From positions 40,306-104,305 of the forward strand of contig MVZM01000003.1 of NCBI GenBank assembly GCA_002068415.1: a DNA stretch of 64,000 bases. The letters are read 5' to 3'. Origin of the DNA: Tenericutes bacterium ADurb.BinA124. Its GTDB lineage: Bacteria; Bacillota_I; Bacilli_A; ML615J-28; CAG-698. How positions within the stretch are numbered: the first letter of the stretch is position 1; each line of letters begins with the position of its first letter. A program made the translations under genes and the position numbers. The notes beneath the pieces were generated by a model, which was not told where the DNA came from, did not search any database, and worked only from the letters and a program-made list of their open reading frames with translations. Below, one piece after another: positions 1,816 to 63,967 of the stretch.

Positions 1816-1833
1816 TTTTTTCTCCTATTTTTC

Positions 1834-2821: not shown

Positions 2822-2859
2822 GTTATTCTCTCATCACCCAATTTCCTTAAAGTGTATTT

Positions 2860-3564
2860 CTATTCCTCAGCGCCTACAATATCAAATTTCATCTGAATCC
2901 TAATCATCCCCCCTAATATTGAATCGACACAATCCGGATCTTCACCTTCCAACCACATAATTACACTATATTTTTTATACATGTGGGGTCGGAGGTTGGC
3001 AATCTTTCCTCTCGTCACAATTTCATCATCGATGAAGTAATTAGCCTTCGGCATCTCTTTCGGGTAATCATAGGGAACCGTATCAGGCTTTTGATACAAA
3101 TACTCATCGGTATCATCTTCGATAATTAATATTCTAACGGCTTCATCAACATTTTTGTAAGTATCAGTTATTTTTAAATGATAACCAACATCCACGGTTT
3201 CACTGCCAATGTTCTTGACATAGAAGGTATAGGCAACATAACGATAATCTTCATCGATATAATCGCCATCCGTTGCTTTAATCTCCGATAGCTTTAACCA
3301 GGAATAAGTAATATCTTTCACATCGATAACGGGATTAGCTAACAATCTTGGGGAAGGAGCTAAGAATTTATCGTCACTAGAAAGGATGATGCCACGGGTG
3401 AATGAATCGGGGTCAATCGACATAACGAAGTTTCCGGCTTGTTGACCATAGAAGGTGATGATGGCAATGGCTATTGATAGAAACGCCGTAATCAGCAAAC
3501 CGATGGTCACAGCTGTTGTTCGGACAGCAAATTTTCTAACTCCAAGCATTTTGGAAAGCCGCAT
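2860..3564 (-). CDS. Paralog 4 (234 aa), first gene of the operon. Divergent N-terminus with a single TM anchor (TAVTIGLLITAFLSIAIAIITFY) instead of a cleavable SipW-type signal. Retains the family C-terminal block MWLEGEDPDCVDSI...IRIQMKF.
   Basis: ORF track. ATG at 3564 with SD AAAGGCGG. The C-terminal about 30 aa align to paralogs 2 and 3. Its position and membrane-anchored N-terminus suggest an anchoring or accessory subunit (TapA-like role, by analogy only). Confidence 0.5.
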   Translation of the reverse strand: MRLSKMLGVRKFAVRTTAVTIGLLITAFLSIAIAIITFYGQQAGNFVMSIDPDSFTRGIILSSDDKFLAPSPRLLANPVIDVKDITYSWLKLSEIKATDGDYIDEDYRYVAYTFYVKNIGSETVDVGYHLKITDTYKNVDEAVRILIIEDDTDEYLYQKPDTVPYDYPKEMPKANYFIDDEIVTRGKIANLRPHMYKKYSVIMWLEGEDPDCVDSILGGMIRIQMKFDIVGAEE

Positions 3565-5430: not shown

Positions 5431-5456
5431 AAAAAGATATTGTTTTTTAAAACAAA

Positions 5457-26545: not shown

Positions 26546-27100
26546 ATCTTTTACAATATCTTCAGGACAAGTAATCTCATTTCCTTTTAACGCTAAATCT
26601 AATACTTTTTCTTTATTATGATTTCCTTGATAAAGTAGCAATCTTTCATAGAGAGAAGTATTTACCTGACGCTTTAGTTCTCGAACAGACCATTTAGAAT
26701 TTATACTTTCTTTTTCATAGAAACTTCTTTTATTTTCATCACTTATGCTAAGAAGTTCGTAATAATGAGACCAAGACAATTTGCCAAACAGTGTCTGGCT
26801 TTATGGATAAGTAAGAAATAACTTCCTCATGTTTTGTAAATTTGACCTTGAAAATCTTTTACCAAACTCTTTGTTAAGTTCCTTTAAGAGGTCTTTAATC
26901 AAAGCCTGACCATATTCTACTCTGTCCAAGTGATTTTGTTCGTCTTCCACAATAGTTCTTCCTATTTCCCAATATACTTTGACTAAAGTGGTGTTCACAG
27001 TTTGAGATAGCTCTCGTCTAGCTTGGAGCATTATTCCTTTTATATTTTTAAAAACAGTGTTTTTGTCTTGATTTATCAAATTGCTCATATCCATCTGCAA
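26528..27100 (-). pseudogene. Frameshifted and truncated YhcG/DUF1016-family (PDDEXK nuclease) gene. Only the N-terminal about 190 aa, split over the track ORFs 26801..27100 and 26528..26779.
   Basis: LVKVYWEIGRTIVEDEQNHLDRVEYGQALIKDLLKELNKEFGKRFSRSNLQNMRKLFLTYP and SWSHYYELLSISDENKRSFYEKESINSKWSVRELKRQVNTSLYERLLL match the YhcG N-terminal domain. The nuclease domain is absent. Confidence 0.65.
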
Positions 27101-27555
27101 ATGTCAACTTGAAATTGACCACCTAGCGGTTTAACCACTCCTTGTTTAAGAAATTTATTATGTCCCCACGGTATTCTTAGTATTGGTGTTTCAAATTCCA
27201 CCCCAGCTTGGGGTAAATTCAGCACATTTGGATATAATTCGTAAAACCAAACCATATAGCGTAAATTTGTGACCGAAAACGACTTTACATCCAGCAGAAG
27301 TTCTGTTAAATCCTTACTGACATTATTATAAAAATCAGTACCATAGAGTGATGTTCTATTCATCGATGCAATATCTCTGCCGAGTATCCAATAAAACTGA
27401 AGCATTTGGTCGTTCACTTTAACAGCCACTTTTAATTGGCTTTTTCTAAATGCCTTGCTGATGGATTGAATCCATCCACGATAATATTCATCCTTCTTTA
27501 TCAATTCACTTACGAATCTACCTCCAAGCATTTTAACTTTTCTATGAAATCGCAC
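27085..27555 (-). pseudogene. Second, divergent YhcG/DUF1016 N-terminal fragment (156 aa)
   Basis: KVAVKVNDQMLQFYWILGRDIA...NLRYMVWFYELYP...IPWGHN follows the DUF1016 N-terminal domain pattern. No nuclease domain. Confidence 0.5.
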
Positions 27556-27608
27556 TTAATTCAACTTCTCTACAATCTCAAACCAGTAATAATTTTCTTT
27601 CTACTCCC

Positions 27609-27720
27609 TTTTACCTCACATTCTATTAGATTATGAGTGTCGTTTAACACAAAGGGTGGTCAATTTCAAATTGCTGTTTTCCTTAAAATCTAGTCAATTT
27701 CAGTTTACTATAAACAATTA
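27609..27720. repeat. About 110-bp direct repeat, copy 2.
   Basis: See copy 1. A partial inverted copy (GGTGGTCAATTTCAAGTTGACA) also lies at 27095..27125, and another partial copy (GGTGGTCAATTTTAAGTTGA, reverse complement) at 13445..13470 inside the islet. Confidence 0.75.
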
Positions 27721-27986
27721 TCATTATTTTTTACTTTATTATCTATTGTTTTAATAGTCTTTAAATATTCTTTCTCAACTTTTGTTAAAGTTTTAACTTG
27801 GTATTTTTTATATTCATCTCTTGCCTTTTCTATTGCTTGTTCATGAGAAATTGTTCCCGCATTTGCTAATATTTCTTCTCCAGCAGTGGAAAGAATTGAG
27901 TCTAAATATTTAATATGATCTTTCATATATATAGGTTTTTTTCTTATGGCATTTATCTCAGCGAAATCAAAATAACCTGAAACCAT
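27708..27986 (-). CDS. Hypothetical protein (92 aa), no recognisable domain
   Basis: ORF track only. The gene is adjacent to the RhuM gene in the same orientation. Confidence 0.3.
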   Translation of the reverse strand: MVSGYFDFAEINAIRKKPIYMKDHIKYLDSILSTAGEEILANAGTISHEQAIEKARDEYKKYQVKTLTKVEKEYLKTIKTIDNKVKNNDNCL

Positions 27987-28011
27987 ATTATTTAAAACTT
28001 TTAGTTCTTCT

Positions 28012-28725
28012 TCAGTTAAATAATTTTTGGCAATACCAATTATCCTTCATTCTTGGAAGTTCACCCTCAAAATTAGTAAGTCCCATAAAAGGTTTATTTG
28101 CATCTACACGATGATATATTATTTCGGCAGCAGTATTTCCATGGACAGCAAAGTGTAATTTATTTTGAACAATTTTAAAAAATTCAAATGTTTCTTCTGC
28201 TTCAGAATCGTAATCAATGCTAGTGGTATATAAGTCTAAAACTTGACGATATATAACCTTTTCAGAAGAACGAATATCACGAATTCTATCAATTAGTTCT
28301 TTCCAATAACTTCCCCCACCAAGCTCTTTAAGTCTTTTATCATCCATAGTAAAGCCTTTTATCATATATTCTTTTAATCGTTCTGTTGCCCAAATTCTAA
28401 ATCTAGTAGCAATAGATGACTTTATTCGATATCCTAGTGAAATTATCATATCTAAATTATAATAAGGCATTTTTCTTTGAACCTCTCTATTTCCCTCTTT
28501 TCGAACTTGTCGGAATTTCCGACAGGTTGAGTTTTCTAATAATTCTCCCTCACTATATATATTTTTAATATGTTCATTAACATTTGTTCGAGAACTATCA
28601 AAAAGTTCAGCCATTTGTTGCTGAGTTAACCAAATATTATCATCTTCAAGTTTTACTTCTATATTAGTTAAACCATCTTCAGTCTTGTAAATTATTATTT
28701 CACCTTTATCATTTTTTACTGACAT
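28012..28725 (-). CDS. RhuM-family protein (virulence protein RhuM-like), 237 aa, intact
   Basis: Family-typical IWLTQQQMAELF...NEHIKNIYSEGEL...MIISLGYRIKS...RFRIWAT. It is the full-length paralog of the fragment at 13546..13929. Confidence 0.65.
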   Translation of the reverse strand: MSVKNDKGEIIIYKTEDGLTNIEVKLEDDNIWLTQQQMAELFDSSRTNVNEHIKNIYSEGELLENSTCRKFRQVRKEGNREVQRKMPYYNLDMIISLGYRIKSSIATRFRIWATERLKEYMIKGFTMDDKRLKELGGGSYWKELIDRIRDIRSSEKVIYRQVLDLYTTSIDYDSEAEETFEFFKIVQNKLHFAVHGNTAAEIIYHRVDANKPFMGLTNFEGELPRMKDNWYCQKLFN

Positions 28726-39550: not shown

Positions 39551-40738
39551 TCATTTTTGCTTTAACGAAGATTCCCCATCAGCAGGGTGAAGATGAAAGA
39601 TGGGTTTTTGTTCTTTTTGTTCGTAAAGCAATTTATCAAGATGAGCAAAAAATTCATGGATTGAAAACGGACTTTTCGCATCAAAGCAATCAATGCCCAT
39701 ACTAATGGAAACAATAAAGGGCAATTTGTTGGTTTTGTTTAGTTCGCTAACATTGGCTAACAAGCGGTTTTGAAAAACCCTGATATCTTCTTTATGGGAT
39801 ATTTCAAAAAACGCTACAAATTCATCGCCACCAATGCGGGCTAAAAAGTCAGTACGACGAAAACTTTGACGCAGGATATTACCGATTTCTCGAAGAATAA
39901 AGTCGCCCATTAAATGGCCAAACTGGTCATTGATTTGTTTAAAGTTATCTAAATCAAAGAATATTCCCCCTAATTTCCGGAAACGGTAGCGACTCTTATT
40001 AATAGTGGATAAGTATTTTTCAAACTCACGTTTATTATATAAACCGGTTAAGTAATCGGTAACGACATTTTCCGATTGTACAAAGACAAAGACCAGTAAA
40101 ATGGATAAAGCAATCGTTTGCCAAGTTAACAGTAAACCGTAATAAAGCGATTGTAAGACAGCTCCAATCAAAGGAGGAATGAGGAACAAATGTAAGGGGA
40201 TAAAATTGGATTTGCGGATGCTCTTCCTTTTCACAATCATTACAACAAAACTGATGATGAAATAAAAAGCCGCCACTAAAATATAAACAAAGAACAAGTG
40301 ACCACGATGATAGACATTATCCTCATCAATGTAAAAAAGGGAGTTGCCAAATAAACTATATACGGCTAAGAACGCATTAATAAAGAAGGGAAGCAAAAAC
40401 CAAAGATGTTTTTTTTGAATGGGAATCGGTTGTTTTTGAATTAAAACATTAATGAAATAGAACCACAAAACCCCAATTGAAGGAGCAATCACAAGACTAA
40501 TGACTTGAGTAGCATAATAAAAACCAGTAACCCAAGCCCCCGGTCGTCCTTCAATCAAGCAACTGAAAATATCCAAGGCCATCAAAATGATATCCACGAT
40601 AATGATGGTCTTGAAAATATTATTTCCCAAATTAAGCGATTCCTTATACTGTCTAAGACTTATTAAGATAATCACTAAAATGATGATACTATAAATATTG
40701 GTTTGAAGTAGATAAGGTAGCCAATAATTCCCCATCAT
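39551..40738 (-). CDS. Membrane-bound diguanylate cyclase (N-terminal 6-8 TM sensor domain + GGDEF, RIGGDEFVAFF), 395 aa
   Basis: Canonical GGDEF. RxxD I-site-like RRTD upstream of it. Confidence 0.85.
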   Translation of the reverse strand: MMGNYWLPYLLQTNIYSIIILVIILISLRQYKESLNLGNNIFKTIIIVDIILMALDIFSCLIEGRPGAWVTGFYYATQVISLVIAPSIGVLWFYFINVLIQKQPIPIQKKHLWFLLPFFINAFLAVYSLFGNSLFYIDEDNVYHRGHLFFVYILVAAFYFIISFVVMIVKRKSIRKSNFIPLHLFLIPPLIGAVLQSLYYGLLLTWQTIALSILLVFVFVQSENVVTDYLTGLYNKREFEKYLSTINKSRYRFRKLGGIFFDLDNFKQINDQFGHLMGDFILREIGNILRQSFRRTDFLARIGGDEFVAFFEISHKEDIRVFQNRLLANVSELNKTNKLPFIVSISMGIDCFDAKSPFSIHEFFAHLDKLLYEQKEQKPIFHLHPADGESSLKQK

Positions 40739-51742: not shown

Positions 51743-54130
51743 TTAATCCTCCTTAAAGGCTCGAGTGCGGGAATAGTTCCAAGCCGCAATGGAGCCGACA
51801 ATGAGAAAGATGAGAATCGAGAACACCGAGGCCATGTTGTAATACTTCTCGTTAACAGTTAAAGTATACATCCAAGAAATTAAAATATCCGTATCACCCG
51901 CAAAGGCCGTATTATAGCCGTTGTTGGCACCACCTTGGGTAATAAAATAGATAACCCCGAAATTATTGAAATTACCGGAGAAAGTCATAACCAAAAGCGG
52001 AGCAGCGGAATACATCACTAAAGGGAAGGTAATTAGTTTGAATTTTTGGGAACGGTTAGCCCCGTCAATATCTGCCGCCTCATAAAGAGTCCGATCAATG
52101 CCAACCATAATGCCCGTCATTAAGGCCATGAAGTAGGGGAAACCCAACCAAATATTAACTAAAATCAAGACAATCCGAACAAACCATGGGTTATGCGGAT
52201 TGGTAAACCATTGAATGTTTTCATTCCCTAAATAAAAGATTTTCGGTAAACTTCCGGTTAAGAATTCATCAATGGTCTGACCGAGCATGCCCCAGTTTTT
52301 TAAAATATCATAAACGCCTAGGCGTTGCAAGAAGGCATTGACAACCCCGCTTTCATTAAAGAAGTTGGCAAAAACCATCTGGGAAATAATGGCCGGAACC
52401 GCCCACGGCAAAATGAGTAAAGTCCGCCAGAATTTCTTCAAAGGAACCCGTTCTGAATTGATAATAACGGCTTGGAAAAAACCGCCAAAGAAACAAGTTG
52501 CCGTCGAAAAGATAGCCCAAATAACTGTCCATAAGAAGACCCGCCAAAAGATTCTTCCAAAGGGAATGCCGACATTGGAGCCGAAATTAAAGATTAAGAC
52601 AAAATTTTTGAAGCCAACCCAATCGAATAAGCCGACATCGGCGGAATTACCGTTATAGGAAGTAAAGGCAATTAAAAAACCAAATAAAATCGGCATAATG
52701 GAAATAAAGGTTAGCACAAAGAGGGCCGGCATTAAGACGATATATTCGAAGGAAGATTCATACATCTTCTTAAAATATTCACGGTCTTTCACAAACACAT
52801 GATTATTGGCATATTCGTAGCTAGTTTTATAAGCATCATGGATATTCCAAAGATAAATAATCACAAAATATAGTAGTAATAATGTGGAAATTAAACCACG
52901 AATCAACAAATAGGATGAAATATGCCCTTGAATCGGCAAATTGGTTAATACCGAATCACCGATATCAGCAACATCAATCGCTTTTGATAATTTATCAATT
53001 TGGTAATAATCATTTTTAGGGGCTGTCCCTAAAGTGATGATTGACCAAATGCCTTTAAGAAAGAAACCGGCACGGTCATTAAAGAAATTATCGTAGGTTT
53101 TTTCAAAATTCTGTTTAACTTCCGGGTTCATTTCAAAATAAACTCGCAATTTGAATTTTGCAAAATCTTCCGGGGTATTGGTTTTATAGACCTTTTGAAA
53201 GTCAACAAAATATTGCGATAAATACTTCGAAAAAACCGTGGAACGATATTTTCCACCCCGACCTTCCGGATTAAAGAAACCGTAAACACTTGTCTCACTA
53301 TAGAATAAAGCATCGGAAACTTTCGCAATTTTGCTTAAATTAGCCGCTTCCCCGTCGTCTTTCATAATTCGTTCCGTCGTATTAATGATATTATCATAAC
53401 GAAGGGGGCTTAAAACACCGTTTTTATTAACCAAAACCTCAACATAAAATTTTGTATAATCATTATTACGATAGATATTCCCAGTCCGTTCAAGTTGATC
53501 AAAATTAATAATATCATTAGCCGTTAAGATATCATTTTCATCCTTAACATTGATGTAAACAAAACTCGGGTCAGTCGCTGTCCCTTGGTTATATTTATAA
53601 TATTCATCCCCGGCCGGTGATTGATAGCTTGTGAAAATCGGATTGAAGCCTGTTAATGAACTAATGGCAAGATCATCTTCACCGGGAACTAAATCCGAAG
53701 GACGGTCCTTACCCTTATTGGCTTCTAGGGCTTGCAGTTCTTCTGCTAAAACATAGTATTTGTTTTTGCTTCCGGCTTTAATATCCATAGCTAAATATTG
53801 AATCAGCTCTTCCGGAGTAAATTCATTATCTTTATGCTCATTATAAAAGCTATCAAAGGAAGCAATTGCCGGCATGCCGTCAAAACAATCGGCTTTATAG
53901 GAACTAACGAAACGATTAATAAAGTTTTGGTTAAAATCGACACCGGGAACTTTTTCATAAGGAGAATAGCCGGATAGATAACGACTCGTGCCAACTTCAA
54001 TGCCCACAAGAATCCCAAAAAAAGCAAAAAAGAATAAAGCTTTCCAGTATTGGCGATTGAAAACTTGGCCTAAACCCCAAATTATTCCCGAAGCAATGGC
54101 TTTAAGAATGTGAATTATTTTTCCTTTCAC
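51743..54130 (-). CDS. malF: Maltodextrin ABC transporter permease (MalF-like) with a very large (about 450 aa) extracytoplasmic loop between TM2 and TM3. 795 aa.
   Basis: The C-terminal half is a typical MalF-type permease core. The N-terminal half is hydrophilic between TM segments. Confidence 0.7.
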   Translation of the reverse strand: MKGKIIHILKAIASGIIWGLGQVFNRQYWKALFFFAFFGILVGIEVGTSRYLSGYSPYEKVPGVDFNQNFINRFVSSYKADCFDGMPAIASFDSFYNEHKDNEFTPEELIQYLAMDIKAGSKNKYYVLAEELQALEANKGKDRPSDLVPGEDDLAISSLTGFNPIFTSYQSPAGDEYYKYNQGTATDPSFVYINVKDENDILTANDIINFDQLERTGNIYRNNDYTKFYVEVLVNKNGVLSPLRYDNIINTTERIMKDDGEAANLSKIAKVSDALFYSETSVYGFFNPEGRGGKYRSTVFSKYLSQYFVDFQKVYKTNTPEDFAKFKLRVYFEMNPEVKQNFEKTYDNFFNDRAGFFLKGIWSIITLGTAPKNDYYQIDKLSKAIDVADIGDSVLTNLPIQGHISSYLLIRGLISTLLLLYFVIIYLWNIHDAYKTSYEYANNHVFVKDREYFKKMYESSFEYIVLMPALFVLTFISIMPILFGFLIAFTSYNGNSADVGLFDWVGFKNFVLIFNFGSNVGIPFGRIFWRVFLWTVIWAIFSTATCFFGGFFQAVIINSERVPLKKFWRTLLILPWAVPAIISQMVFANFFNESGVVNAFLQRLGVYDILKNWGMLGQTIDEFLTGSLPKIFYLGNENIQWFTNPHNPWFVRIVLILVNIWLGFPYFMALMTGIMVGIDRTLYEAADIDGANRSQKFKLITFPLVMYSAAPLLVMTFSGNFNNFGVIYFITQGGANNGYNTAFAGDTDILISWMYTLTVNEKYYNMASVFSILIFLIVGSIAAWNYSRTRAFKED

Positions 54131-55530: not shown

Positions 55531-57951
55531 TTACGCATATCTTCTTCTTCTAAAGAAGAAAACTAATCCTAATAATCCGAACCCGACCATAGCACTAGCA
55601 CTGTTGGCTTTGCAGCCTTTTTCCGGTGCAACAACGGTAATCGTAAAATCTAATTGCCCAACATTACCCCATTCATCAACAACTTCCAATCTAATTGGGT
55701 AATCGCCGACTTTATTCGTATCTAGGGTTCCATGTCCCTTCGCCACATAAACTTTCGGTGTAAGGTTAGCATCGCGATTGTCCGTAACGCGATAAACCGG
55801 GAAGAGGGATTGATCCCATTTAGCGCCCAAAGCAACCGTAATCGCGGCATCCGGATCAACTAAAGCAATCACCGGTTTTTCTTTATCTAAGTCTAAAGCA
55901 ATCTCAGCTAATAATTGTTTATCGCCCGTTAAACCGTTGTTGAAGTGCAAGGTATAAGCTTTGGTATTGTTTAAGGCATTGGCTTCCGCTAACTGAATAA
56001 CGAATTCATTAGTTGAATCAGCGGTCGTGTTATAGTCAATTTGCGCAATTGGCACAACTGTTGTTCCTTGTTTTAAAGTAAAGTAGGTTTTCAAATCAAT
56101 TAATCCCATAACATCACGAACATATGCCACATCACCATAAACATCGGTGAAAATTACTTCGCCACCAAAAGCAACGGGTGCAAAGTCAATTCGGGATTGG
56201 AAAATCGTTTCCACGGTGACATAGACAAGTTTAACTTGGCCAGCCGTCATGGTTTTGAAACCATCAAGATTACCGGAAGGATGTTTCTTGGTAGCATCAT
56301 CGCCCGCATAAATTAGTAATCCCGGATCTTTAGTGCCATCAGGTGTGAATTGCAATAAGGCGGCTTTGCCTTGGACATTGTCCGGTGACTTAAAGCCATC
56401 CTTAAACACCTTAGCCGGTGTTCCCCAATCGGTTTCCGTAAAGTTTTCCCAGCCATTCCAAGCATGAACGCCGAGGTTTTCTTCATAGGTGCCGGTCTTA
56501 TCAAAGTATAAAACCAAAACATTGGCTTTAGCCGGATCGGCAACATAGTAGGTTTGGAATCCGCCTTGGAAATAGTAGACATGAATAGTGGTCGCAGTTC
56601 CCGCTTTAATGGCGGTAACATCAAAATTGATGTGTTGGCCATCCGGGGTTTCCCGATGATTCCAACGAGCATCACTACCAATTTCGGCACCAATCGGAAT
56701 AATACCGATGGTATCCGCAGCATCATCGTCAATGTTGATTTCCATAACGGCGCCGAAAGCATCGACTCCCGTCATCGCAACTCCATCTTTAGTGCCGTCA
56801 GTCCCGGCATTCCAAGTCCATAGTCCTGTTCCCGTATAGTTTCCATCCCATTTTTGGTAATGGAAAACAACGCGCCCTTTTACATTTGCAGGAAGAGCGG
56901 TCGCCTTATAAGCGGGATATTCCGGTAAATCCGTCGGTAATTTCCAGCCGTCTTCACTCGGAACAACTTCAATTTTTTGACCGATTACTTCGTTAACATA
57001 ATAAGTTTCTTCACCGGTTTTTTCTTTCGTAGTCACCGCAATTGATGTTTTAACGAAAATAACCCGTGGATCTTTCGCATAAGTTCCATCAAGAGTTGCT
57101 AAAGCAAAAGGAATAAAGTCAAAGGTAAAGGCGTTATCAACAAATGTTTGACGCTTGTCAACGCCATCATAAACACTGCCGCCCGAAACATAAACGACTT
57201 TGACGGCTCCGGCTTTTAAATCTTTGAAACCTTTAATATCACCGGCCGAAGCATGTTTCTTCGTTTGATCACTGCCGGCATAAATTAAAAAGCCTGGATC
57301 TTTCGTGCCATCGGGAGTAAATTGCAATAAGGCCGCTTTGCCTTGAACATTACCCGGTGACTTAAAGCCATCCGAAAACACCTTAGCGGGAGTTCCCCAA
57401 CTTGGTTCCGTAAAGTTTTCCCATCCGTTCCATGCATGAACGCCTAAGTTATCTTCATATGTTCCCGATGGATCATAGTAAAGAACGATAACATTGACTT
57501 TAGCAGGATCAGCAAGATAGTAAGTTTGGTATCCGCCTTGGAAATAATAAACATGGAGTTCATTAACGGTTCCATTCTTTAAAGCAGTCACATTAAACTT
57601 AATGTGATAGCCATCCGGTGTTTCCCGAGAATCCCAACGCGAATCCAAAGTAATGTCTTTCCGAAGGGGAATTAAGCCAATTTCATCATCAGCGTCGGAC
57701 ATAACATTAATTTCATAAACACCACCAAAAGCATCCGTAACAGTACTTGTTACGGCACTACTGGTTCCTCCCGTTCCGGTTCCCCATGTCCATAAACCGG
57801 AGCTTGAATAATCCCCATCCCATAATTGGTAATGGAAGACCACTTTTCCAGCTGCCGTCGGTTCAGCAGCATTAATTTTCGTATCAATTGTGAAAAAGAG
57901 CGTTAATAAAGCAAGGATTGATACGAAAAGTACGATCAGATTTTTCTTCAT
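55531..57951 (-). CDS. Cell-surface starch-binding protein with two tandem about 300-aa modules, each with a CBM41/pullulanase-associated-like domain (VVFHYQxWDG...GLWTW). Signal peptide from MKKNLIVLF (RBS AAGGAGG). C-terminal GC-TM-RRRR tail.
   Basis: Internal protein and DNA-level tandem duplication (about 56280..56560 versus about 57250..57560). CBM41-like motif shared with the pullulanase N-terminus. Start refined from the track ORF start at 58002. Confidence 0.6.
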   Translation of the reverse strand: MKKNLIVLFVSILALLTLFFTIDTKINAAEPTAAGKVVFHYQLWDGDYSSSGLWTWGTGTGGTSSAVTSTVTDAFGGVYEINVMSDADDEIGLIPLRKDITLDSRWDSRETPDGYHIKFNVTALKNGTVNELHVYYFQGGYQTYYLADPAKVNVIVLYYDPSGTYEDNLGVHAWNGWENFTEPSWGTPAKVFSDGFKSPGNVQGKAALLQFTPDGTKDPGFLIYAGSDQTKKHASAGDIKGFKDLKAGAVKVVYVSGGSVYDGVDKRQTFVDNAFTFDFIPFALATLDGTYAKDPRVIFVKTSIAVTTKEKTGEETYYVNEVIGQKIEVVPSEDGWKLPTDLPEYPAYKATALPANVKGRVVFHYQKWDGNYTGTGLWTWNAGTDGTKDGVAMTGVDAFGAVMEINIDDDAADTIGIIPIGAEIGSDARWNHRETPDGQHINFDVTAIKAGTATTIHVYYFQGGFQTYYVADPAKANVLVLYFDKTGTYEENLGVHAWNGWENFTETDWGTPAKVFKDGFKSPDNVQGKAALLQFTPDGTKDPGLLIYAGDDATKKHPSGNLDGFKTMTAGQVKLVYVTVETIFQSRIDFAPVAFGGEVIFTDVYGDVAYVRDVMGLIDLKTYFTLKQGTTVVPIAQIDYNTTADSTNEFVIQLAEANALNNTKAYTLHFNNGLTGDKQLLAEIALDLDKEKPVIALVDPDAAITVALGAKWDQSLFPVYRVTDNRDANLTPKVYVAKGHGTLDTNKVGDYPIRLEVVDEWGNVGQLDFTITVVAPEKGCKANSASAMVGFGLLGLVFFFRRRRYA

Positions 57952-58033
57952 TTTTTCCTCCTTGAAAAAAAGATAAAAGAGAGTCTTACATAAACTTCTC
58001 ATACATAATTATTTTAACACTTTCTTGTTTTTT

Positions 58034-58047
58034 TGCAAGCGATTTCA
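58034..58047. promoter_or_regulatory. cre-like / LacI-family operator site 1 (TGCAAGCGATTTCA) in the divergent promoter region.
   Basis: Fits the cre consensus WTGNAANCGNWNNCW including flanking T and T. Imperfect palindrome centred on CG. Confidence 0.55.
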
Positions 58048-58120
58048 TTTATGTAATGGTTTTCATAATCAAGAAGTTTTTCTTTCACTTCTTTTCGTTT
58101 AAGAAAACCGTTCTTTTTAA

Positions 58121-58134
58121 TGCAAACGATTTCA
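58121..58134. promoter_or_regulatory. cre-like / LacI-family operator site 2 (TGCAAACGATTTCA).
   Basis: 12 of 14 positions palindromic. Direct repeat of site 1, 87 bp away. Confidence 0.55.
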
Positions 58135-58231
58135 TTTATGGAAACCATTACACATTTTAGGCAATTGAAAATCTTAACATCTTATAGTAAAATAAACTAA
58201 AGCAACAAACAAGTTTTGGGAAAGGATTACT

Positions 58232-61018
58232 ATGAAAAAAAGATTATTAATGATGTTTTTACTGCTGCTTTTGATAATCCCCATCAGCATCGCCGCCGCC
58301 GAAACTAATGTTTCCACCCTCAAAATCCATTATTATCGCTATGGAAACGATTATGATAGGGGTTGGAATATCTGGCTTTGGCCCTTTGGAAGCGAAGGTG
58401 AGCAGATTGATTTTGATAAAAACGAGGGTGTATTTGTACAAGATGACTGGGGAGTGGTGGCAACCGTTGATTTAAGCGCCACCAAGTATCGCAACATCAC
58501 CCAAATCGGTATCATTTTTCGCAGGGGTGCTTGGGCGGAAAAAGATATTGATTTCGACCGCTATATTCAAATACCGACGACAGCCGAAAACGGCCTTTTA
58601 AATGTTTATTTTGTGGAAGGAGATGAAAGAATGGGGTATTCACCAACAGACCAAAGCGGTCCTGACCGCTCCGATAAAATTAAAGCCGCTTTTTTCACAA
58701 ACACCGCCGAAATTGCTTATCAGCTAACAGCACCCTTGAAAGCCGCTGATTTATCATTATATGAAGATGATGTTTTGTTAGCAGCAAGCATTTCACCAAT
58801 GGCCAATACCGGAAAAATTACCTTAACAAAAAACCTTGATTTTTCCAAAAAATATGTGTTAAAAGCCCAATTTCCTTCCGGTCTTAAAAGCTATGATGTC
58901 ACCTTTGACGGTATTTATGACTCCGAGGCTTTTGAAGCCGCCTTTGCTTATGATGGCAATGACCTTGGTGCCCTTGTTACGGGGAATGTAACTAATTTTC
59001 GTTTGTGGGCACCGATTTCCTCAGCTGTAAGCCTTAATTTATATGAAACGGGAACTCCGGCGGCCTTAGGCGGAAGTGATACCAAAATCGCCACTTATCC
59101 AATGACCAAAGATGTTAAAGGCACCTGGAAATATGCCGCCAATCAAAACCTGCATGGCAAATATTATACTTATTCGGTGACCAACGGTTCAAGAACTTTT
59201 GAAACAATTGACCCCTATGCCAAGAGTGCGGGCGTAAACGGCTTAAGAGGCATGGTAGTCGACTTTCCTAAAACCAACCCCACCGGTTTTAAATACCACG
59301 AGCGGCCTAATAATATTGAAAATGCCACCGATGCAATTATTTATGAACTGCATGTGCGCGACTTAACATCCCATTCCAGTTGGAATGGGCCCAAGGAACA
59401 TGCCGGCAAATTCCTCGGTCTAATTGACGAAGGCACTACTTATCAAGGCATCACCACCGGCTTTGACCATATTAAAGAATTAGGCGTAACCCATGTTCAA
59501 CTACTACCCTTCTTTGATTTTGGGGTCGTTGATGAAACAAAACTGAATGAGCCGAAATACCAAGCTAAAGGAATTTTTAACTGGGGCTATATGCCGCTTA
59601 ACTTCAATGTTCCTGAAGGTTCTTATTCTTCCGATCCTTATGACGGCACGAAACGCATCACGGAGTTAAAACAAGTTACTACGGCCTTTACCAAAAATAA
59701 CATCGGTTTAATCATGGATGTGGTTTATAATCATACCGGTTTAAGCGCCGATTCCAATTTTCACTTAATCCTTCCGGGTTATTTCCACCGCCTAACCCCA
59801 ACGGGGGTCTTTTCCAATGGGTCAGGAACCGGTAACGAAACCGCTTCGGAACGCTATATGGTGCGCAAATTTATTGTCGATTCCACCGTTTTTTGGGCCA
59901 CGGAATATAATATTTCCGGATTCCGTTTTGACTTGATGGCTTTACACGATGTGGAAACCATGAAGGCCGTTGTCAGCGCCTTGAAAGCGATTGATCAAAA
60001 CATCTTAATCTACGGTGAACCGTGGAATGGGGGAGCGACCCCGCTTCCTCCTAGCATGGCAGCGGATAAAGTCAATCTCGCCAAGATGCCCGAGGTCGGA
60101 GCTTTCAACGACGAAATCCGCGACGGCATTAGAGGGTCCGTCTTTACCACAGCGGAAGGCGGTTTTGTACAAGGGGGAACTTCACCAAAAATCATGAACC
60201 GCACCAAATACGGTGTTGTTGGTGGTGTGGCTTACCCAGGGCTGGATTTAAAAGATCTTTCTTACCAAACTGTTTGGCATACCCAGCCAAGCAAAACCAT
60301 CAACTATGTCAGCGCCCACGACAATAATACTTTGTACGACAAATTGCGTTTATCCACCACCTATCAACAAAAACAATATCTTGACGAAATGCAAAAACAG
60401 GCCAACGCCATTGTCCTAACTTCACAAGGTGTTCCCTTCCTTCATGCGGGAGTTGAATTTCTACGTTCCAAACCGGATGGCAGCGGCGGTTATGATCACA
60501 ATTCTTATGAGTCGCCGGACAGCGTCAACCAACTCCGTTGGGATTTAAAAGCGGAAGCGTTAAATATGTCAGTCTTTACTTATTACAAAGGATTGATTGC
60601 CTTACGAAAGGCCCATCCGGCCTTCCGAATGGCGACGGCCAAAGAAGTAATTGCTAATGTGAAATTTGTTTATGAAGACAAACCGGGAATTTTGGCCTAC
60701 ACCATTGCCAATTATGCCAATAACGATTCTTGGGGGACGATTCTCGTCATTCATAACAACGGCAATTTCATCCAACTAAAACTGCCCGAAGGTGAAGAAA
60801 CTTGGAATTTAGTCGCCAACGGCAGCCAAGTTGGTGAGGAAACTATTAAATCCTATGCCGGGGGTGCGACCATCAGCGTCCTCGAACATGAAAGCTTAAT
60901 TTTGTATCAAGGCTACCGTGCCAAACCGACGAAACGCGGTTGCTTTGGGGGAGCGGCGATAATGCCTTTAGCCCTCCTCGGTTTAGGTGTTTTGATACTT
61001 AAAAAACGAAAACATTAA
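58232..61018 (+). CDS. pulA: Type I pullulanase (GH13_14) with signal peptide, N-terminal CBM41-like domain and C-terminal GC-TM-KKRKH tail. 928 aa.
   Basis: Signal MKKRLLMMFLLLLLIIPISIAAA. GH13 regions YNHTG, GFRFDLMA, GEPWN, YVSAHDN. Pullulanase-type architecture. Confidence 0.85.
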   Translation: MKKRLLMMFLLLLLIIPISIAAAETNVSTLKIHYYRYGNDYDRGWNIWLWPFGSEGEQIDFDKNEGVFVQDDWGVVATVDLSATKYRNITQIGIIFRRGAWAEKDIDFDRYIQIPTTAENGLLNVYFVEGDERMGYSPTDQSGPDRSDKIKAAFFTNTAEIAYQLTAPLKAADLSLYEDDVLLAASISPMANTGKITLTKNLDFSKKYVLKAQFPSGLKSYDVTFDGIYDSEAFEAAFAYDGNDLGALVTGNVTNFRLWAPISSAVSLNLYETGTPAALGGSDTKIATYPMTKDVKGTWKYAANQNLHGKYYTYSVTNGSRTFETIDPYAKSAGVNGLRGMVVDFPKTNPTGFKYHERPNNIENATDAIIYELHVRDLTSHSSWNGPKEHAGKFLGLIDEGTTYQGITTGFDHIKELGVTHVQLLPFFDFGVVDETKLNEPKYQAKGIFNWGYMPLNFNVPEGSYSSDPYDGTKRITELKQVTTAFTKNNIGLIMDVVYNHTGLSADSNFHLILPGYFHRLTPTGVFSNGSGTGNETASERYMVRKFIVDSTVFWATEYNISGFRFDLMALHDVETMKAVVSALKAIDQNILIYGEPWNGGATPLPPSMAADKVNLAKMPEVGAFNDEIRDGIRGSVFTTAEGGFVQGGTSPKIMNRTKYGVVGGVAYPGLDLKDLSYQTVWHTQPSKTINYVSAHDNNTLYDKLRLSTTYQQKQYLDEMQKQANAIVLTSQGVPFLHAGVEFLRSKPDGSGGYDHNSYESPDSVNQLRWDLKAEALNMSVFTYYKGLIALRKAHPAFRMATAKEVIANVKFVYEDKPGILAYTIANYANNDSWGTILVIHNNGNFIQLKLPEGEETWNLVANGSQVGEETIKSYAGGATISVLEHESLILYQGYRAKPTKRGCFGGAAIMPLALLGLGVLILKKRKH

Positions 61019-61020
61019 TG

Positions 61021-61050
61021 AAAAAGTAATGCCGGCCGGCATTACTTTTT
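61021..61050. terminator. Bidirectional terminator (perfect palindrome AGTAATGCCGGCCGGCATTACT flanked by A5/T6).
   Basis: 11-bp perfect stem read from the sequence. Confidence 0.85.
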
Positions 61051-61886
61051 TATTGATTAAGATTAGTTTCTACTCCCTTCGCCCCGCGATAAATGGCTAA
61101 GAGGGCAATTAAGGGGGTTAGGAATTGAAACAAAACCACCGTAAAGGAATTAATTTCCATGATTCCCAAAAGGCCGACTAAAAAGCCGATTAAAGCGGGA
61201 ATCGTCATCGAAGCAATGATAATCTTAAGGTTATCACTAAACTTAGTAAGGGGTTTATAATTAACGCGGATTAACAAAAAAATCGCCGCCAAAATTAAAA
61301 CTAATAATAAATTCATTCCTAATTGAACAAGGGTATTAATGGCCACCGAATAAAAAACAGCATAGGGACTGAAAGCCCCATCAATCATGGTTAAGAACAA
61401 ATCAACCGCTTGGCTTTTGTCGAGCGTTTTTAAGTCTGCAAAATCCATCACCGTATTAACATGTTGATAATCACCCAATAAAGAATGCCCCTGCCCATCA
61501 AAAAAGCTAATTTGCTCAGTTCCTAAAACAATCGTGTTGACAACATCGCTTGCTGGTGTTTGCGGATTAATGATGATTGTGAAAACACCGGCTTCGGTCG
61601 TCGTCATAAAGCGATATTCTTGATTTTGAATGAAATGTAAACCCGCTTGCGAAATGGACATATCACTCGGCAATTGCTCCGGAAGCCATTGCGGGTTAGC
61701 CTTCCTTAACTCATAGGTAATCGTATTTAAGCCCCGAAAGCCATCATTTTTAATGATTTGATAATTGAGGGGAAAAGCAATCACCAAAACCAAGAACAAA
61801 AAATAAGCAATAAAAGCTTTCAAAGGTTTTTTTCTTTGTTTAAAAAGATTGGATAAAGAAAAACTATGCCAAAAGATTTTAAGCAT
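61050..61886 (-). CDS. Polytopic membrane protein of unknown function (maltodextrin-operon-associated, YvdJ/DUF1189-like). Start chosen at MLKIFW, overlapping the amylase stop (ATGCTTAA) with SD GGAGG.
   Basis: Track ORF trimmed to the RBS-supported start. 5-6 TM helices. Confidence 0.5.
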   Translation of the reverse strand: MLKIFWHSFSLSNLFKQRKKPLKAFIAYFLFLVLVIAFPLNYQIIKNDGFRGLNTITYELRKANPQWLPEQLPSDMSISQAGLHFIQNQEYRFMTTTEAGVFTIIINPQTPASDVVNTIVLGTEQISFFDGQGHSLLGDYQHVNTVMDFADLKTLDKSQAVDLFLTMIDGAFSPYAVFYSVAINTLVQLGMNLLLVLILAAIFLLIRVNYKPLTKFSDNLKIIIASMTIPALIGFLVGLLGIMEINSFTVVLFQFLTPLIALLAIYRGAKGVETNLNQ

Positions 61887-63477
61887 TATCCGCCTCCGAG
61901 ACATCAAAAATGATGGTTGATTTGGGAGGTATTTCACAAACATCCGTAAAATCCGTTGTATTTGATAAATAGAGAATCGTCCCTAAGGCTTCAATCGCTT
62001 GCGCTTGGCGAGAAAGATTATGAATGACTAAAACTTTTTGGTAATGATTTAAATAACTAAATTCTCGGTAAAAACCTTGGAGCTGATAGTTGTTCTTTTC
62101 ATAGGGCGAAAGATGATTCCCATAATATAAAGCCGGGTTGGCTTTACGAACGGCGATCATTTGTTGGTAGGTTTTGAATAAAGAAGTCGGTTCAGTGATT
62201 TGTAAGGACAGGGGCTTCAGTTTTTGATTTGCTAAAACGCTGGGAAAGTTCGAATCCGTAAACCAAGTAGTTTCATATTCATCACCAAAGGGGAAGGGCA
62301 AGCGCCTTGTTTCATCCCAAACGGCGATGCCTTGGGACAATTCGCCATTGGCTTTAACACCATGCATACCGACTTCTTCACCATAATAAAGAATTGGTGA
62401 ACCCGGAAGCACCAATAGCATTTCGGCCGCTAACTTCATTTTTTCCATATCACCACCAAGTTGGTCAGCCACCCGATCCATATCATGGTTAAACAAAAAG
62501 GGGGCACTGATAAAGGCCGGATTTTCTTTCGCATATAATTCATATATCTTAATTAAACTATTAACATAGGTCGTACTTCCGTTGGCTCCGGCAATCGTCG
62601 ATGTTTTAAGAGCCACCGGAAAATCTAAAGGCGAATCTAAACCGCGGAAATAAGGTGCGACAATTGATTCAGCCGTAATATAAATTTCTCCGGTTAAATA
62701 GAATTGAGAATTTAATTTTCGTAAATTATTTCGTAACACTTGTAAGAAGATGATATTTTCATAATCATCATAGCGTTGGTTTTGGTATTCATTAATGCCA
62801 TAAAAATGAGCGGCGGCATCCAGCCGAAAACCACTAACACCTAAATCAAGCCAAAATTGGCTGATGGCGGCAATCTCCTTATGGACTTCCTTATTAAAAA
62901 AATTTAAATCCGGCATCGAAGGCGAAAAATAACCGACATAGTATTGGTCATCTTGGTGATGCCAAATGTTTTGCCCCCAGCTGCCCAATAAACTGCGATT
63001 TGTTGTGGGCGTTGCGAAAGTATAATAATCCCGGTATTGGGCATCATTCGCTAAAGCCGCTTTAAACCACGGATGTTGATCGGAACTGTGGTTAAAAACC
63101 ATGTCCAGCATAATTTTAATGCCCCGTTTTTTTGTTTCTTTTAAAAGCTGTTTAAAATCATCTAAAGTGCCGTAATCGGGATTAACATCATAATAGTCAA
63201 TGACATCATAACCGTGATAACTGGGACTGGGGTGAATGGGCATTAACCATAAGCCCGTCACTCCCAAGCTTTCCAAATAATCCAGCTTCGCAATAAGGCC
63301 TTGAAAATCACCAATGCCATCACCATCGCTATCCGCAAAACTCCGAACAAAGAGTTCGTAATAAATATCATTCCGCGGAAAAGCTTCTCTTAAGGGGTCC
63401 TTCTTGGGACCGCAACCACTGATTACTAGGAGCACGAAAACTAATAAAAGTAAAGTAAGTTTGTTTTTAATCATCAT
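61879..63477 (-). CDS. GH13 alpha-amylase lipoprotein (532 aa)
   Basis: Lipobox LLVISGCG. GH13 regions DMVFNH, GFRLDAA, GEIY, FLFNHD. Confidence 0.85.
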   Translation of the reverse strand: MMIKNKLTLLLLVFVLLVISGCGPKKDPLREAFPRNDIYYELFVRSFADSDGDGIGDFQGLIAKLDYLESLGVTGLWLMPIHPSPSYHGYDVIDYYDVNPDYGTLDDFKQLLKETKKRGIKIMLDMVFNHSSDQHPWFKAALANDAQYRDYYTFATPTTNRSLLGSWGQNIWHHQDDQYYVGYFSPSMPDLNFFNKEVHKEIAAISQFWLDLGVSGFRLDAAAHFYGINEYQNQRYDDYENIIFLQVLRNNLRKLNSQFYLTGEIYITAESIVAPYFRGLDSPLDFPVALKTSTIAGANGSTTYVNSLIKIYELYAKENPAFISAPFLFNHDMDRVADQLGGDMEKMKLAAEMLLVLPGSPILYYGEEVGMHGVKANGELSQGIAVWDETRRLPFPFGDEYETTWFTDSNFPSVLANQKLKPLSLQITEPTSLFKTYQQMIAVRKANPALYYGNHLSPYEKNNYQLQGFYREFSYLNHYQKVLVIHNLSRQAQAIEALGTILYLSNTTDFTDVCEIPPKSTIIFDVSEADNA

Positions 63478-63967
63478 ATGTTGTTCCTTTAAGACTTTTA
63501 GCAGCCGAGGGAGTTGTTGATAAACCGATGCGATCCGAGGTATATTTGGTTAAAGCAATCACCCGGGTTTTAAAAATTAAATCATGGATGGTTCTGCCAT
63601 CTTCGCGACCGGAAGCAACAAGCCCCGCTATAAAAATATAGACGCCAAATGTTATAAAAGTTAAAAGTGCTTTAACAATTTCACGCAAGATTAATAAATA
63701 AAGCGCCGGAACAAACACCTTCTCGGGAATTAGTTCCTGATAGTTTTTCACAACCTTTAATTTTTGAATGCGTTTCCCGAAAGTTTGGCCGGGCGAAAAG
63801 AAATGAGGAATAATCATAACCCCAAAATAACACCCCAAAGCAATGGCCATTTTACCTAAAGGCAAGATGCTAGGAAGATTATAAATGACAATCATACCAA
63901 TAAGCATTAAAGTAAAGGCTAATGATGAATCGATTGAATAAGCCCGCAATCGGCGATCAAAATTCAT
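63467..63967 (-). CDS. RDD-family membrane protein (166 aa)
   Basis: N-terminal RRLRAYSIDSS (R-x-x-A-x-x-I-D RDD motif). 3 TM helices. Confidence 0.65.
   Translation of the reverse strand: MNFDRRLRAYSIDSSLAFTLMLIGMIVIYNLPSILPLGKMAIALGCYFGVMIIPHFFSPGQTFGKRIQKLKVVKNYQELIPEKVFVPALYLLILREIVKALLTFITFGVYIFIAGLVASGREDGRTIHDLIFKTRVIALTKYTSDRIGLSTTPSAAKSLKGTTYDD

Follow-up and report, generated by a model that had tools for sequence, protein, structure and literature searches.

The window analysed here, a stretch of DNA of 64 kb, contains two adjacent, divergently transcribed and co-conserved genes, which encode a secreted protein with PUD/CBM41 repeats (PUD protein in the following) and a type I pullulanase, in a locus that also encodes a maltodextrin ABC importer (Table 1). 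The start of the PUD gene is most likely the ATG at 57951 and not the one at 58002: the motif AAGGAGG is found 6 nt upstream of the former, and the resulting protein of 806 amino acids has the same length as the database protein P0001. Pfam assigns two PUD-containing repeats (PF03714, twice) and an Ig-like domain (PF16403) to the PUD protein, followed by a C-terminal tail with a Gly-Cys signature (G-C tail). The pullulanase is composed of PUD, CBM48, the GH13 catalytic domain and an all-beta domain (Pfam), and ends in a G-C tail as well. The initial annotation of this DNA had described both proteins as starch-degrading, which is correct for the pullulanase and does not apply to the PUD protein, in which the Pfam scan found carbohydrate-binding repeats and no catalytic domain.

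Table 1. Coordinates of the two genes and of their terminal signals within the window.
Feature	Position	Strand	Basis
Secreted PUD/CBM41-repeat surface protein, CDS	55531..57951	-	ORF; 806 aa + stop
PUD protein, signal peptide MKKNLIVLFVSILALLTLFFTIDTKINA	57868..57951	-	translation; cleavage site inferred from sequence pattern
PUD protein, C-terminal tail PEKGC-KANSAS-AMVGFGLLGLVFFF-RRRRYA	55534..55626	-	sequence, translation
PUD protein, tail Cys codon (C780 of 806 aa)	55612..55614	-	translation
Type I pullulanase, CDS, 928 aa	58232..61018	+	TIGR02104, 684 bits (cut-off 504.5)
Pullulanase, signal peptide MKKRLLMMFLLLLLIIPISIAA	58232..58297	+	translation; cleavage site inferred
Pullulanase, C-terminal tail PTKRGC-FGGAAIMPLALLGLGVLIL-KKRKH	60926..61015	+	sequence, translation
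Pullulanase, tail Cys904 codon	60941..60943	+	translation

Both proteins start with a type-I signal peptide without a lipobox, MKKNLIVLFVSILALLTLFFTIDTKINA in the PUD protein and MKKRLLMMFLLLLLIIPISIAA in the pullulanase, each followed by AE at the predicted cleavage site; the translation thus bears out the signal peptides that had been proposed before. Since MKKNLIVLFVSILALLTLFFTIDTKINA contains no Cys, the PUD protein is not an N-terminal lipoprotein. The C-terminal ends read ...APEKGCKANSASAMVGFGLLGLVFFFRRRRYA in the PUD protein and ...KPTKRGCFGGAAIMPLALLGLGVLILKKRKH in the pullulanase, and are present as initially quoted, with a Gly-Cys, one short hydrophobic helix and a cluster of Arg/Lys; likewise, neither sequence contains an LPXTG motif. 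In the pullulanase tail the helix follows the Cys without a spacer and includes a Pro (AAIMPLALLGL). C780 is the sole Cys of the mature PUD protein, and Cys904 is the sole Cys of the entire pullulanase.

Only these two ORFs display a Cys followed by a transmembrane (TM) helix and a basic C-terminus when the 64-kb window is taken together with the 8 kb past its end and with the portion of locus L040 before its start. A rough estimate, with the Gly at position -1 left uncounted, puts the probability that a lone Cys would fall among the 8 residues preceding the helix in each of the two proteins at (8/778) x (8/906), i.e. ~1e-4. Of the 21 loci in which both tails are readable, the window being one of them, 20 encode a G-C tail on both proteins. 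The shared G-C tail is not due to chance, a point that is settled by the comparative data.

Conservation of the tail Cys was counted over distinct G-C tails, 54 from PUD orthologues and 52 from pullulanase homologues (106 in total). The Cys is kept in all of them (54/54 and 52/52), with overall identities to the window protein as low as 37-38% among the PUD orthologues and as low as 51% among the listed pullulanases. The Gly at -1 is conserved to 90-94% in the same tails and is now and then replaced by Ser or Asn; of the "invariant Gly-Cys" that had been noted, the Cys is invariant and the Gly is not. Flanking positions are free to vary: the window proteins display PEKGC and TKRGC, and ETSGC, AAASC and ASNC are found elsewhere, while many PUD orthologues display A-P-E-T-G-C followed by a spacer, the helix and the basic tail. 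The distance from the Cys to the C-terminus is always 25-35 residues. 24/53 PUD orthologues and 11/52 pullulanases contain no Cys other than that of the tail; a second Cys (CxSC, GCGC) is found at +2 to +7 in 29/52 pullulanase tails, with GCGC in P0102, P0106, P0187 and P0189. Thr occupies position -2 in 65% of the PUD tails and in 30% of the pullulanase tails. Within single loci, it is Lys/Arg in both tails in the window and in L013, and Thr in both tails in most Izemoplasmatales-type loci; a possible co-variation between the two tails yields p = 0.13 (Fisher, 15 pairs), and a hand tally including four more loci (2/0/1/16) yields approximately p = 0.02, both values being uncorrected for phylogeny. 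All named carriers of G-C tails are Mycoplasmatota, Acholeplasmatales, Izemoplasmatales, Tenericutes or "Bacilli" MAGs. The tail constitutes a tripartite module at the C-terminus, which is conserved and has a Cys that looks essential.

The initial annotation had named a restriction of the tail to these two proteins as a point against a sorting signal. Across related genomes there is no such restriction: the window holds two carriers, and about five protein families carry the tail in all. Across related genomes a G-C-type tail is found on a metallophosphoesterase (P0073) and on its neighbour of 1151 amino acids, in a distant organism of 27% GC (loci L033/L034, two adjacent and unrelated tail carriers), as well as on a C-terminal Big_2 fragment adjoining a second phosphoesterase gene. 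A search of 1.84 billion representatives with a tail profile of 32 positions returned seven matches at E <= 1e-3, two of them new carriers; the search is not a census and the seven matches are a lower bound, because a profile of this length leaves most true tails below significance. The same type of search in a word-indexed protein database returned three fragments of PUD orthologues and no new carrier family.

A sister clade of pullulanases (e.g. P0116 and P0156, loci L037 and L038) carries a TM anchor without Cys and with a basic cytoplasmic end, often on proteins without any Cys at all. These plain-TM loci, L037 and L038, lack the PUD protein, a DUF1189 gene and an RDD gene (PF06271), the latter being present in G-C-type loci. 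The median length of the hydrophobic core is 17-19 residues for G-C tails versus 24 for the Cys-less sister anchors (Mann-Whitney p = 2e-14, uncorrected for phylogeny), and the shorter core fits a transient helix of the sorting type. No Cys point mutant of the G-C type was found among the tails examined. Exceptions have a wholly different tail (P0053, P0190, P0108, P0147, P0178) or no tail at all (P0065-67), and P0174 carries a G-C tail within the plain-TM clade. Between related genomes, tails are exchanged whole and never by point mutation of the Cys.

These data bear on the possibility that the tail does no more than stop transfer as a plain anchor, in which the G-C is an inherited feature of one tail lineage (for example a hinge or helix cap) and neither modified nor processed. 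Such an anchor is a workable alternative, because the sister pullulanases do carry Cys-less TM anchors, which are functionally adequate on homologous enzymes; tail type also tracks the pullulanase clades and is largely vertical. However, the Cys is kept in 106/106 distinct tails of two families while its neighbours turn over, often as the sole Cys in roughly 800-930 residues. The same signature on unrelated proteins of the distant 27% GC organism, the systematically different helix length and the acquisition of a G-C tail by P0174 inside the plain-TM clade point in the same direction, and we regard a plain anchor as improbable. The comparison shows that the Cys is indispensable to the G-C tail type, and that the module is common to unrelated secreted proteins and distinct from plain TM anchors.

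A role of the tail Cys in a disulfide, either as a covalent tether between PUD protein and pullulanase or as a redox or metal site of the CxxC type, may be suggested by the adjacency, divergence and co-conservation of the two genes, with both products G-C-tailed in nearly all readable loci, and by the CxSC of many pullulanase tails. However, in locus L027 the PUD protein keeps its G-C tail beside pullulanase P0108, which has a Cys-less anchor, and the same Cys-less pairing is suggested by P0190 and P0031, which probably lie on one contig, their longest contigs being of equal length. In other loci the tail is found on unrelated proteins, and the organisms derive from digesters and sediments that are anaerobic, so that disulfides outside the cell are presumably unfavoured. 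Moreover, the window proteins have no CxxC, because each has a single Cys. Such a disulfide is highly improbable.

No sorting enzyme had been seen in the window initially, and this is still the case: the window contains no gene for a CPBP protease, sortase, rhomboid or exosortase, and none was seen in ~0.6 Mb of related loci, a result which would also be expected of a plain anchor. Regular expression scans of all loci for CPBP (EExxxR...FxxxH...HxxxN/D) and sortase (TLxTC) motifs returned only false matches inside the pullulanases, and a Pfam scan of the unexplained multi-pass membrane ORFs revealed no protease; among these ORFs, Pfam recognised a heliorhodopsin, ABC-2 permeases, RDD, Lgt and DUF1189. 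Another part of the genome may encode a housekeeping sorting enzyme. The starch loci of the Izemoplasmatales type contain a divergent Lgt homologue scoring below the NCBIfam equivalog cut-offs; its WC30 copy is named plain Lgt by NCBI. DUF1189 was set aside as a sorting factor, given that it is also encoded, as YvdJ, in the Bacillus subtilis maltodextrin operon, which is not known to have such tails. RDD had been a candidate on account of its presence in G-C-type loci and its absence from the two plain-TM loci, and was set aside as well; the one role reported for a member is that of a cation/proton antiporter. An RDD binding site facing the cytoplasm has also been described (PMC12419801).

An LPXTG-type origin of the tail may also be considered. 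Pullulanases of walled Firmicutes are commonly anchored by LPXTG signals, which resemble G-C tails in their order of motif, spacer, hydrophobic segment and basic tail, with PETG being present in many orthologues. The LPXTG_anchor model of NCBIfam matches 28/35 tails (best E-value 6e-8), and one source labels the fragment P0069 "LPXTG-motif cell wall-anchored protein". It is nevertheless barely credible that a sortase still processes the tail as a degenerate signal of the LPXTG type. The Leu is missing, the Thr is not conserved and is absent from PEKGC and TKRGC of the window, and the sole constant residue is a Cys after the Gly, which is needed by no sortase motif. A sortase gene is found in none of the loci, and the ancestor of Acholeplasmatales and Izemoplasmatales is reported to have lost both sortases and peptidoglycan (PMC10868615), so that a route of anchoring other than by sortase is needed. 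The likeness to LPXTG would be better read as ancestry, with an LPXTG-type tail re-used after loss of the wall. Annotation pipelines can mislabel G-C tails as LPXTG anchors, as in the case of P0069.

Based on this dataset, we hypothesize that both tails represent one C-terminal signal for membrane anchoring, which is specific to a lineage of wall-less, Mycoplasmatota-like bacteria, depends on its Cys, is of the MYXO-CTERM kind, and is lipidated and then probably clipped; we assign a probability of roughly 45% to this reading. Judged from the sequences, Sec would export both proteins, with removal of the N-terminal signal peptides, and the short helix together with the cytoplasmic Arg/Lys cluster would stop the transfer and keep the enzyme attached to the outside of the single membrane. 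The Cys, positioned at the membrane surface or just above it, may then be modified by a lipid, by analogy with MYXO-CTERM, for which the literature names Lgt or an Lgt-like transferase as leading candidate. Subsequently, the helix would probably be cut off by a CPBP/Rce1-type intramembrane protease ("myxosortase"). As an outcome, the starch-binding protein and the pullulanase would be tethered by a C-terminal lipid beside the maltodextrin ABC importer. Against clipping, it may be said that proteins of a monoderm cell need no cleavage to reach the surface.

Alternatively, the tail may be a permanent TM anchor with an uncleaved helix, in which a lipid or another modification of the juxtamembrane Cys reinforces or positions the short helix. 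The conservation of the Cys speaks for this arrangement to the same extent, a short hydrophobic core could need a lipid to remain in the membrane, no protease candidate is present in any locus, and a monoderm cell need not release the helix. On the other hand, known tripartite tails with a Cys do undergo cleavage (PMC11980579), a basic cluster combined with a short helix is typical of sorting signals and not of stable anchors, and the sister clade anchors its enzymes permanently by a longer helix without Cys. We consider a permanent modified anchor rather unlikely.

The lipidated and clipped signal preferred above may, as a tentative proposal, be extended to an undescribed Cys-dependent C-terminal sorting system in lineages of the Acholeplasmatales and Izemoplasmatales type, which would have replaced LPXTG and sortase upon wall loss and would likewise act by lipidation and subsequent clipping, as a monoderm counterpart of MYXO-CTERM and myxosortase that yields surface enzymes anchored by a C-terminal lipid; possibly, Lgt or the divergent Lgt homologue within the locus lipidates the C-terminal Cys in this system. 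By its sequence, the Cys-dependent tail resembles the sorting signals of myxobacteria and appears to be of a kind not yet described for this bacterial branch. If true, it would constitute a second, independent Cys-tail system, in small genomes (~1.6-2 Mb) of wall-less organisms, and would explain how large hydrolases are held on the single membrane of bacteria without sortase, wall and N-terminal lipobox. The contrast of G-C tail versus plain anchor in close relatives is well suited for phylogenetic profiling of the transferase and the protease; genomes of the G-C type include CP134495.1 (Mycoplasmatota bacterium WC30) and OW818673.1, those with plain anchors CP076021.1 and ERZ21878204 (ctg9552c).

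Our literature search found no link of such tails to Mycoplasmatota, and neither NCBIfam release 20 nor Pfam holds a dedicated model for the G-C tail. No curated tail model of NCBIfam or Pfam scores above its cut-off on either full protein: the whole PUD protein reaches 13.4 bits with TIGR03901 (cut-off 20) and 13.5 bits with TIGR03382 (cut-off 15.85), while the whole pullulanase matches neither. The excised PUD tail reaches 18.9 bits with TIGR03382, above the cut-off, and 19.5 bits with TIGR03901, just below it; no curated model is significant for the pullulanase tail alone. The curated models nearest to the G-C tail are MYXO-CTERM and GC_trans_RRR (TIGR03901 and TIGR03382): across 35 tails, the former matches 17 and the latter 13 (best E-values 2.6e-5 and 2.8e-6).

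The initial annotation had likened the tails to the signals of exosortase, archaeosortase and rhombosortase (PEP-CTERM, PGF-CTERM, GlyGly-CTERM). This is not supported, as matches to these classes are sub-threshold and limited to the helix, and no such gene is present in the loci. CGP-CTERM was rejected, with the Cys-Gly-Pro signature being absent from the tails, and so was JDVT-CTERM, for which no DP motif precedes the helix and weak matches are found in 4/35 tails. In the N-terminal lipobox (Lgt/Lsp), as in G-C tails, a Gly-Cys is located at the outer surface of the membrane and small polar residues come next; lipoproteins of the window locus read IVGC and ISGC. However, in the lipobox the Cys follows the helix, whereas in G-C tails it precedes it, so that the topology is inverted; G-C tails also lack the hydrophobic residue at -3, and a cut of the Lsp type N-terminal of the Cys would free the protein and not anchor it. 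With a C-terminal Cys before the helix, and signal peptides devoid of Cys, the class of bacterial lipoproteins was rejected. The anchors of the sister clade are found on the same enzyme, in the same position and organism group and with the same basic cytoplasmic end, but have no Cys and a longer hydrophobic core (median 24 against 19).

The nearest known class is that of the Cys-containing signals MYXO-CTERM and Synerg-CTERM, which are handled by "myxosortases" of the CPBP/Rce1 type (Haft 2023, doi 10.1101/2023.06.07.544157; PMC11980579); the initial annotation had mentioned CAAX proteases solely as a target for searches. Synerg-CTERM (TIGR04564, MrtS) resembles the pullulanase tail by a single Cys abutting the helix and by a Pro in a Leu-rich helix (Haft 2023). 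In contrast, its HMM does not match the window tails and weakly matches 1/35 tails, its Cys is preceded by a Ser/Gly cluster instead of Lys/Arg or Pro-Glu-Thr, it has no spacer where PUD tails have ~6 residues, and the phylum differs.

MrtX, a protease of the CPBP family, requires the Cys of MYXO-CTERM in order to cleave it, and for the modification of this Cys Lgt has the status of leading acyltransferase candidate (PMC11980579). MYXO-CTERM is restricted to Myxococcota, where it co-occurs with MrtX, MrtC or MrtP, whereas G-C tails are carried elsewhere and no CPBP gene is present in the fetched loci. The host of MYXO-CTERM is a diderm myxobacterium with type II secretion, that of G-C tails a monoderm, wall-less, Mycoplasmatota-like organism. 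The rationale given for myxosortases, hand-over to the type II secretion system, does not apply to a monoderm host. The helix of MYXO-CTERM has neither charged residues nor Pro, with which the PUD tail agrees and the Pro-containing helix of the window pullulanase does not. Both signals are tripartite (signature, TM helix, Arg-rich end), span ~30-35 residues at the extreme C-terminus and are found on diverse secreted proteins. Both have an invariant Cys preceded by Gly and frequently a second Cys, including the GCGC that is described as generic motif of MYXO-CTERM (Haft 2023, doi 10.1101/2023.06.07.544157), and it is with MYXO-CTERM that G-C tails display their best, though sub-threshold, HMM similarity.

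The C-terminal Gly-Cys tail shared by the PUD protein, a surface protein with CBM41-like repeats, and the neighbouring pullulanase is conserved and Cys-dependent; secreted proteins carry it as an exchangeable unit, and it differs from plain membrane anchors. The two genes are divergently transcribed (55531-61018). The longest PUD open reading frame starts at 58002; 57951 is taken as the start because this ATG is preceded, 6 nt upstream, by the strong Shine-Dalgarno sequence AAGGAGG and yields the 806-aa form of public databases (P0001). Public annotations differ in length (NCBI 806 aa, JGI 823 aa). A Pfam scan of the PUD protein gave no catalytic domain. In agreement with the initial annotation, both proteins carry N-terminal signal peptides, which are classical and free of Cys, and both ends consist of Gly-Cys, a hydrophobic helix and a basic cluster. 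The tail Cys is the sole cysteine of each mature protein. Neither the rest of the window nor the 8 kb past its end, nor the part of locus L040 that lies beyond the start of the window, contained a further reading frame ending in this way.

Table. Coordinates of the gene pair, neighbouring genes and other features (L, related locus)
Feature	Coordinates	Strand	Remarks
PUD protein gene	55531-57951	minus	two PUD/CBM41-like repeats, Ig-like domain (Pfam)
PUD protein tail			...APEKGC KANSAS AMVGFGLLGLVFFF RRRRYA
Type I pullulanase gene	58232-61018	plus	TIGR02104, 684 bits (cut-off 504.5)
Pullulanase tail			...KPTKRGC FGGAAIMPLALLGLGVLIL KKRKH
DUF1189 gene	61050-61943		window
Lipoprotein amylase gene	61879-63477		window
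RDD gene	63467-63967		window
Lgt homologue	L010 17463-18287		PF01790; also L009, L021-L023, L025-L027, L029
Heliorhodopsin gene	L025 6088-6876		PF18761, E = 9e-97
Palindromes	58034-58047; 58121-58134		TGAAATCG(T/C)TTGCA
LacI-family regulator gene	L001 18546-19526		just past window end
MalF-like permease gene	51743-54130		795 aa
Paralogous cluster	901-3564, on into L040 8252-19390		Pfam-less
GGDEF, EAL or HD-domain genes	3931-8048; 16790-19348; 39551-40738		four proteins
RhuM/DUF1016 region	~27085-28725		Pfam listing, L008

The resemblance of the two tails exceeds chance. Among 68 PUD homologues (P0055, P0061 and P0062 are truncated), every complete one has the tail save P0053, P0065-67 and the distant P0068. 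The Cys is invariant in 54 distinct PUD tails, at identities to the window protein down to 37-38%, and Gly precedes it in 90% of 55 tabulated tails, a tabulation that takes in P0053, a Cys-in-helix anchor. Loci of 22 GTDB species genomes, of two complete genomes and of an additional MAG were compared, and in these the pullulanase adjoining the PUD gene nearly always has a Gly-Cys end; the best 120 pullulanase homologues include 52 distinct tails of this type (Cys 100%, Gly 94%). Residues flanking the Cys vary freely, and its distance from the C-terminus is 25-35 residues. No other Cys occurs in the mature form of 24/53 PUD orthologues and 11/52 pullulanases; a second one follows at +2 to +7 (CxSC, CxxSC, GCGC) in 29/52 pullulanase tails. 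Disulfide tethering through the tail Cys seems quite improbable. Proteins identical to those of the window occur in metagenome contigs of several samples and in MAG GCA_029572635.1, and orthologues are filed under 'Bacilli bacterium', Tenericutes, Mollicutes, Acholeplasmatales, Acholeplasmataceae, Izemoplasmatales and Mycoplasmatota bacterium WC30.

A search of 1.84 billion representative proteins with a tail profile (E <= 1e-3) returned two unrelated carriers. One is an 835-aa metallophosphoesterase ending ...SESGCNKGSLIIFVTFALAGLVFVLYRRR (P0073), whose contig (27% GC) encodes as its next gene a 1151-aa protein without family match, ending ...KETSCSKGSLVLLLTSLITSLSLVFVLRKKQ; the other is a C-terminal Big_2 fragment (P0072), with another phosphoesterase gene adjoining.

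Pullulanase homologues provide a natural control, as they split into two clades. The clade of the window protein bears Gly-Cys tails, and the other (about 60 of the best 120) has a Cys-less helix followed by KKKK, often in proteins without any Cys. Switches between the types are exchanges of the whole tail: four proteins of the Gly-Cys clade have plain anchors (P0190, P0108, P0147, P0178), one of the plain clade has a ...TTGCGSC... tail (P0174), and none of the tails examined was changed at the Cys alone. In one locus (L027) a plain-anchored pullulanase adjoins a Gly-Cys-tailed PUD protein, and therefore both types can coexist in one genome. The median hydrophobic core measures 17 residues in PUD tails, 19 in pullulanase Gly-Cys tails and 24 in plain anchors (p = 2e-14, without correction for phylogeny); the shorter core thus marks a distinct type with the helix length typical of sorting signals. 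The invariance of the Cys argues against a plain anchor with an inert Gly-Cys, and we consider this reading unlikely.

Pfam listings of all genes, motif scans and targeted Pfam scans of unexplained membrane reading frames covered the window and about 0.6 Mb of related loci. They yielded no gene for a CPBP, sortase, rhomboid or exosortase protein, which bears out the initial annotation's statement that no cognate enzyme is visible in the window. Such an enzyme may be encoded elsewhere; the myxosortase of M. xanthus is a housekeeping enzyme encoded away from its targets (Haft 2023, doi 10.1101/2023.06.07.544157). An overlapping RDD-amylase-DUF1189 operon (61050-63967), two of whose products are membrane proteins, is conserved beside the pair in those of the examined Gly-Cys-type loci that reach far enough, including L039, and is missing from both plain-anchor loci examined (L037, L038). 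In an Izemoplasmatales MAG, a heliorhodopsin gene stands between the DUF1189 and pullulanase genes. In about ten Izemoplasmatales-type loci extending far enough, a homologue of Lgt directly follows the malG-like permease gene. It scores 62-82 bits against the TIGR00544 cut-off of 118.9, below the NCBIfam Lgt cut-offs, and might represent a diverged Lgt or an additional one; at NCBI the WC30 copy bears the plain name Lgt (XMB71550.1). It is of relevance since lipidation before cleavage has been proposed for the myxobacterial Cys-containing signal MYXO-CTERM, with Lgt as leading candidate (PMC11980579).

Based on sequence rules, we hypothesize that both proteins would be exported by Sec and lose their signal peptides, and that the helix would stop transfer with the basic cluster inside and the Cys on the outer face of the membrane. 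Analogy with the MYXO-CTERM class suggests that the Cys may then gain a lipid and that an intramembrane protease may remove the helix, so that a lipid would hold starch-binding protein and pullulanase close to the maltodextrin ABC importer that the locus also encodes. We assign this sequence of events as a whole a probability of about 0.45. The loci examined held no protease candidate, which would suit an uncleaved anchor with a modified Cys; the sorting-signal-like helix length counts against such an anchor, and we regard it as a possible but weaker alternative.

The MalF-like ABC permease is unusually long (794-885 aa in all related loci), with a ~400-residue insert ahead of the conserved permease domain. 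The divergent promoter region between the PUD and pullulanase genes holds two near-identical palindromes, both resembling cre/LacI-family (MalR-type) operators. Elsewhere, the proteins of a paralogous cluster have N-termini (such as ...ALGTTTFAWFTL...) resembling SipW/TasA-type signal peptides. A weak Peptidase_S26 (signal peptidase I) gene belongs to this cluster, a 2387-aa protein comes after the cluster, and the locus may serve to assemble a fibre or matrix. The GGDEF, EAL or HD-domain proteins in 64 kb are a dense cyclic-di-GMP signalling set for a Mycoplasmatota-like genome. RhuM-family genes and a DUF1016 gene broken into three small reading frames point to the remains of a mobile or defence element.

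The tail lies outside every curated family tested. On whole proteins, none of the NCBIfam C-terminal sorting models passed its cut-off. The excised PUD tail scored 18.9 bits with TIGR03382 'GC_trans_RRR' (cut-off 15.85) and 19.5 bits with TIGR03901 MYXO-CTERM (cut-off 20). When 35 tails were scanned alone, MYXO-CTERM matched 17/35 and GC_trans_RRR 13/35, every match being weak; ten further tails, and Pfam, gave no match. LPXTG_anchor matched 28/35, and many Izemoplasmatales-type orthologues read A-P-E-T-G-C before spacer, helix and basic tail. The Thr is not kept: the two proteins of the window have PEKGC and TKRGC at this place, and selection therefore does not act on a sortase motif. Ancestral reconstruction places loss of sortase and peptidoglycan genes at or near the Acholeplasmatales-Izemoplasmatales ancestor (PMC10868615), and a sortase signal appears hardly credible. 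One source labels a PUD orthologue fragment ending ...PETGCGAANASIAAIGLLGVVLFFVRRREWQ (P0069) 'LPXTG-motif cell wall-anchored protein', probably a mis-annotation, as these organisms are reported to lack sortase and wall.

Searches of the accessible literature found no work linking such tails to Mycoplasmatota. Four Cys-containing tripartite signals have been defined (MYXO-, JDVT-, Synerg- and CGP-CTERM), each tied to a CPBP/Rce1-family intramembrane protease, in a study that mentions neither Firmicutes nor Mollicutes (Haft 2023, doi 10.1101/2023.06.07.544157). MYXO-CTERM is cut by the myxosortase MrtX; its Cys residues are needed, and cleavage functions in E. coli (PMC11980579). The earlier comparison with exosortase- and rhombosortase-type signals holds in part: the tail is a sorting-signal-like module, but its kind is that of the Cys-containing MYXO-CTERM and not that of the exosortase or rhombosortase signals.
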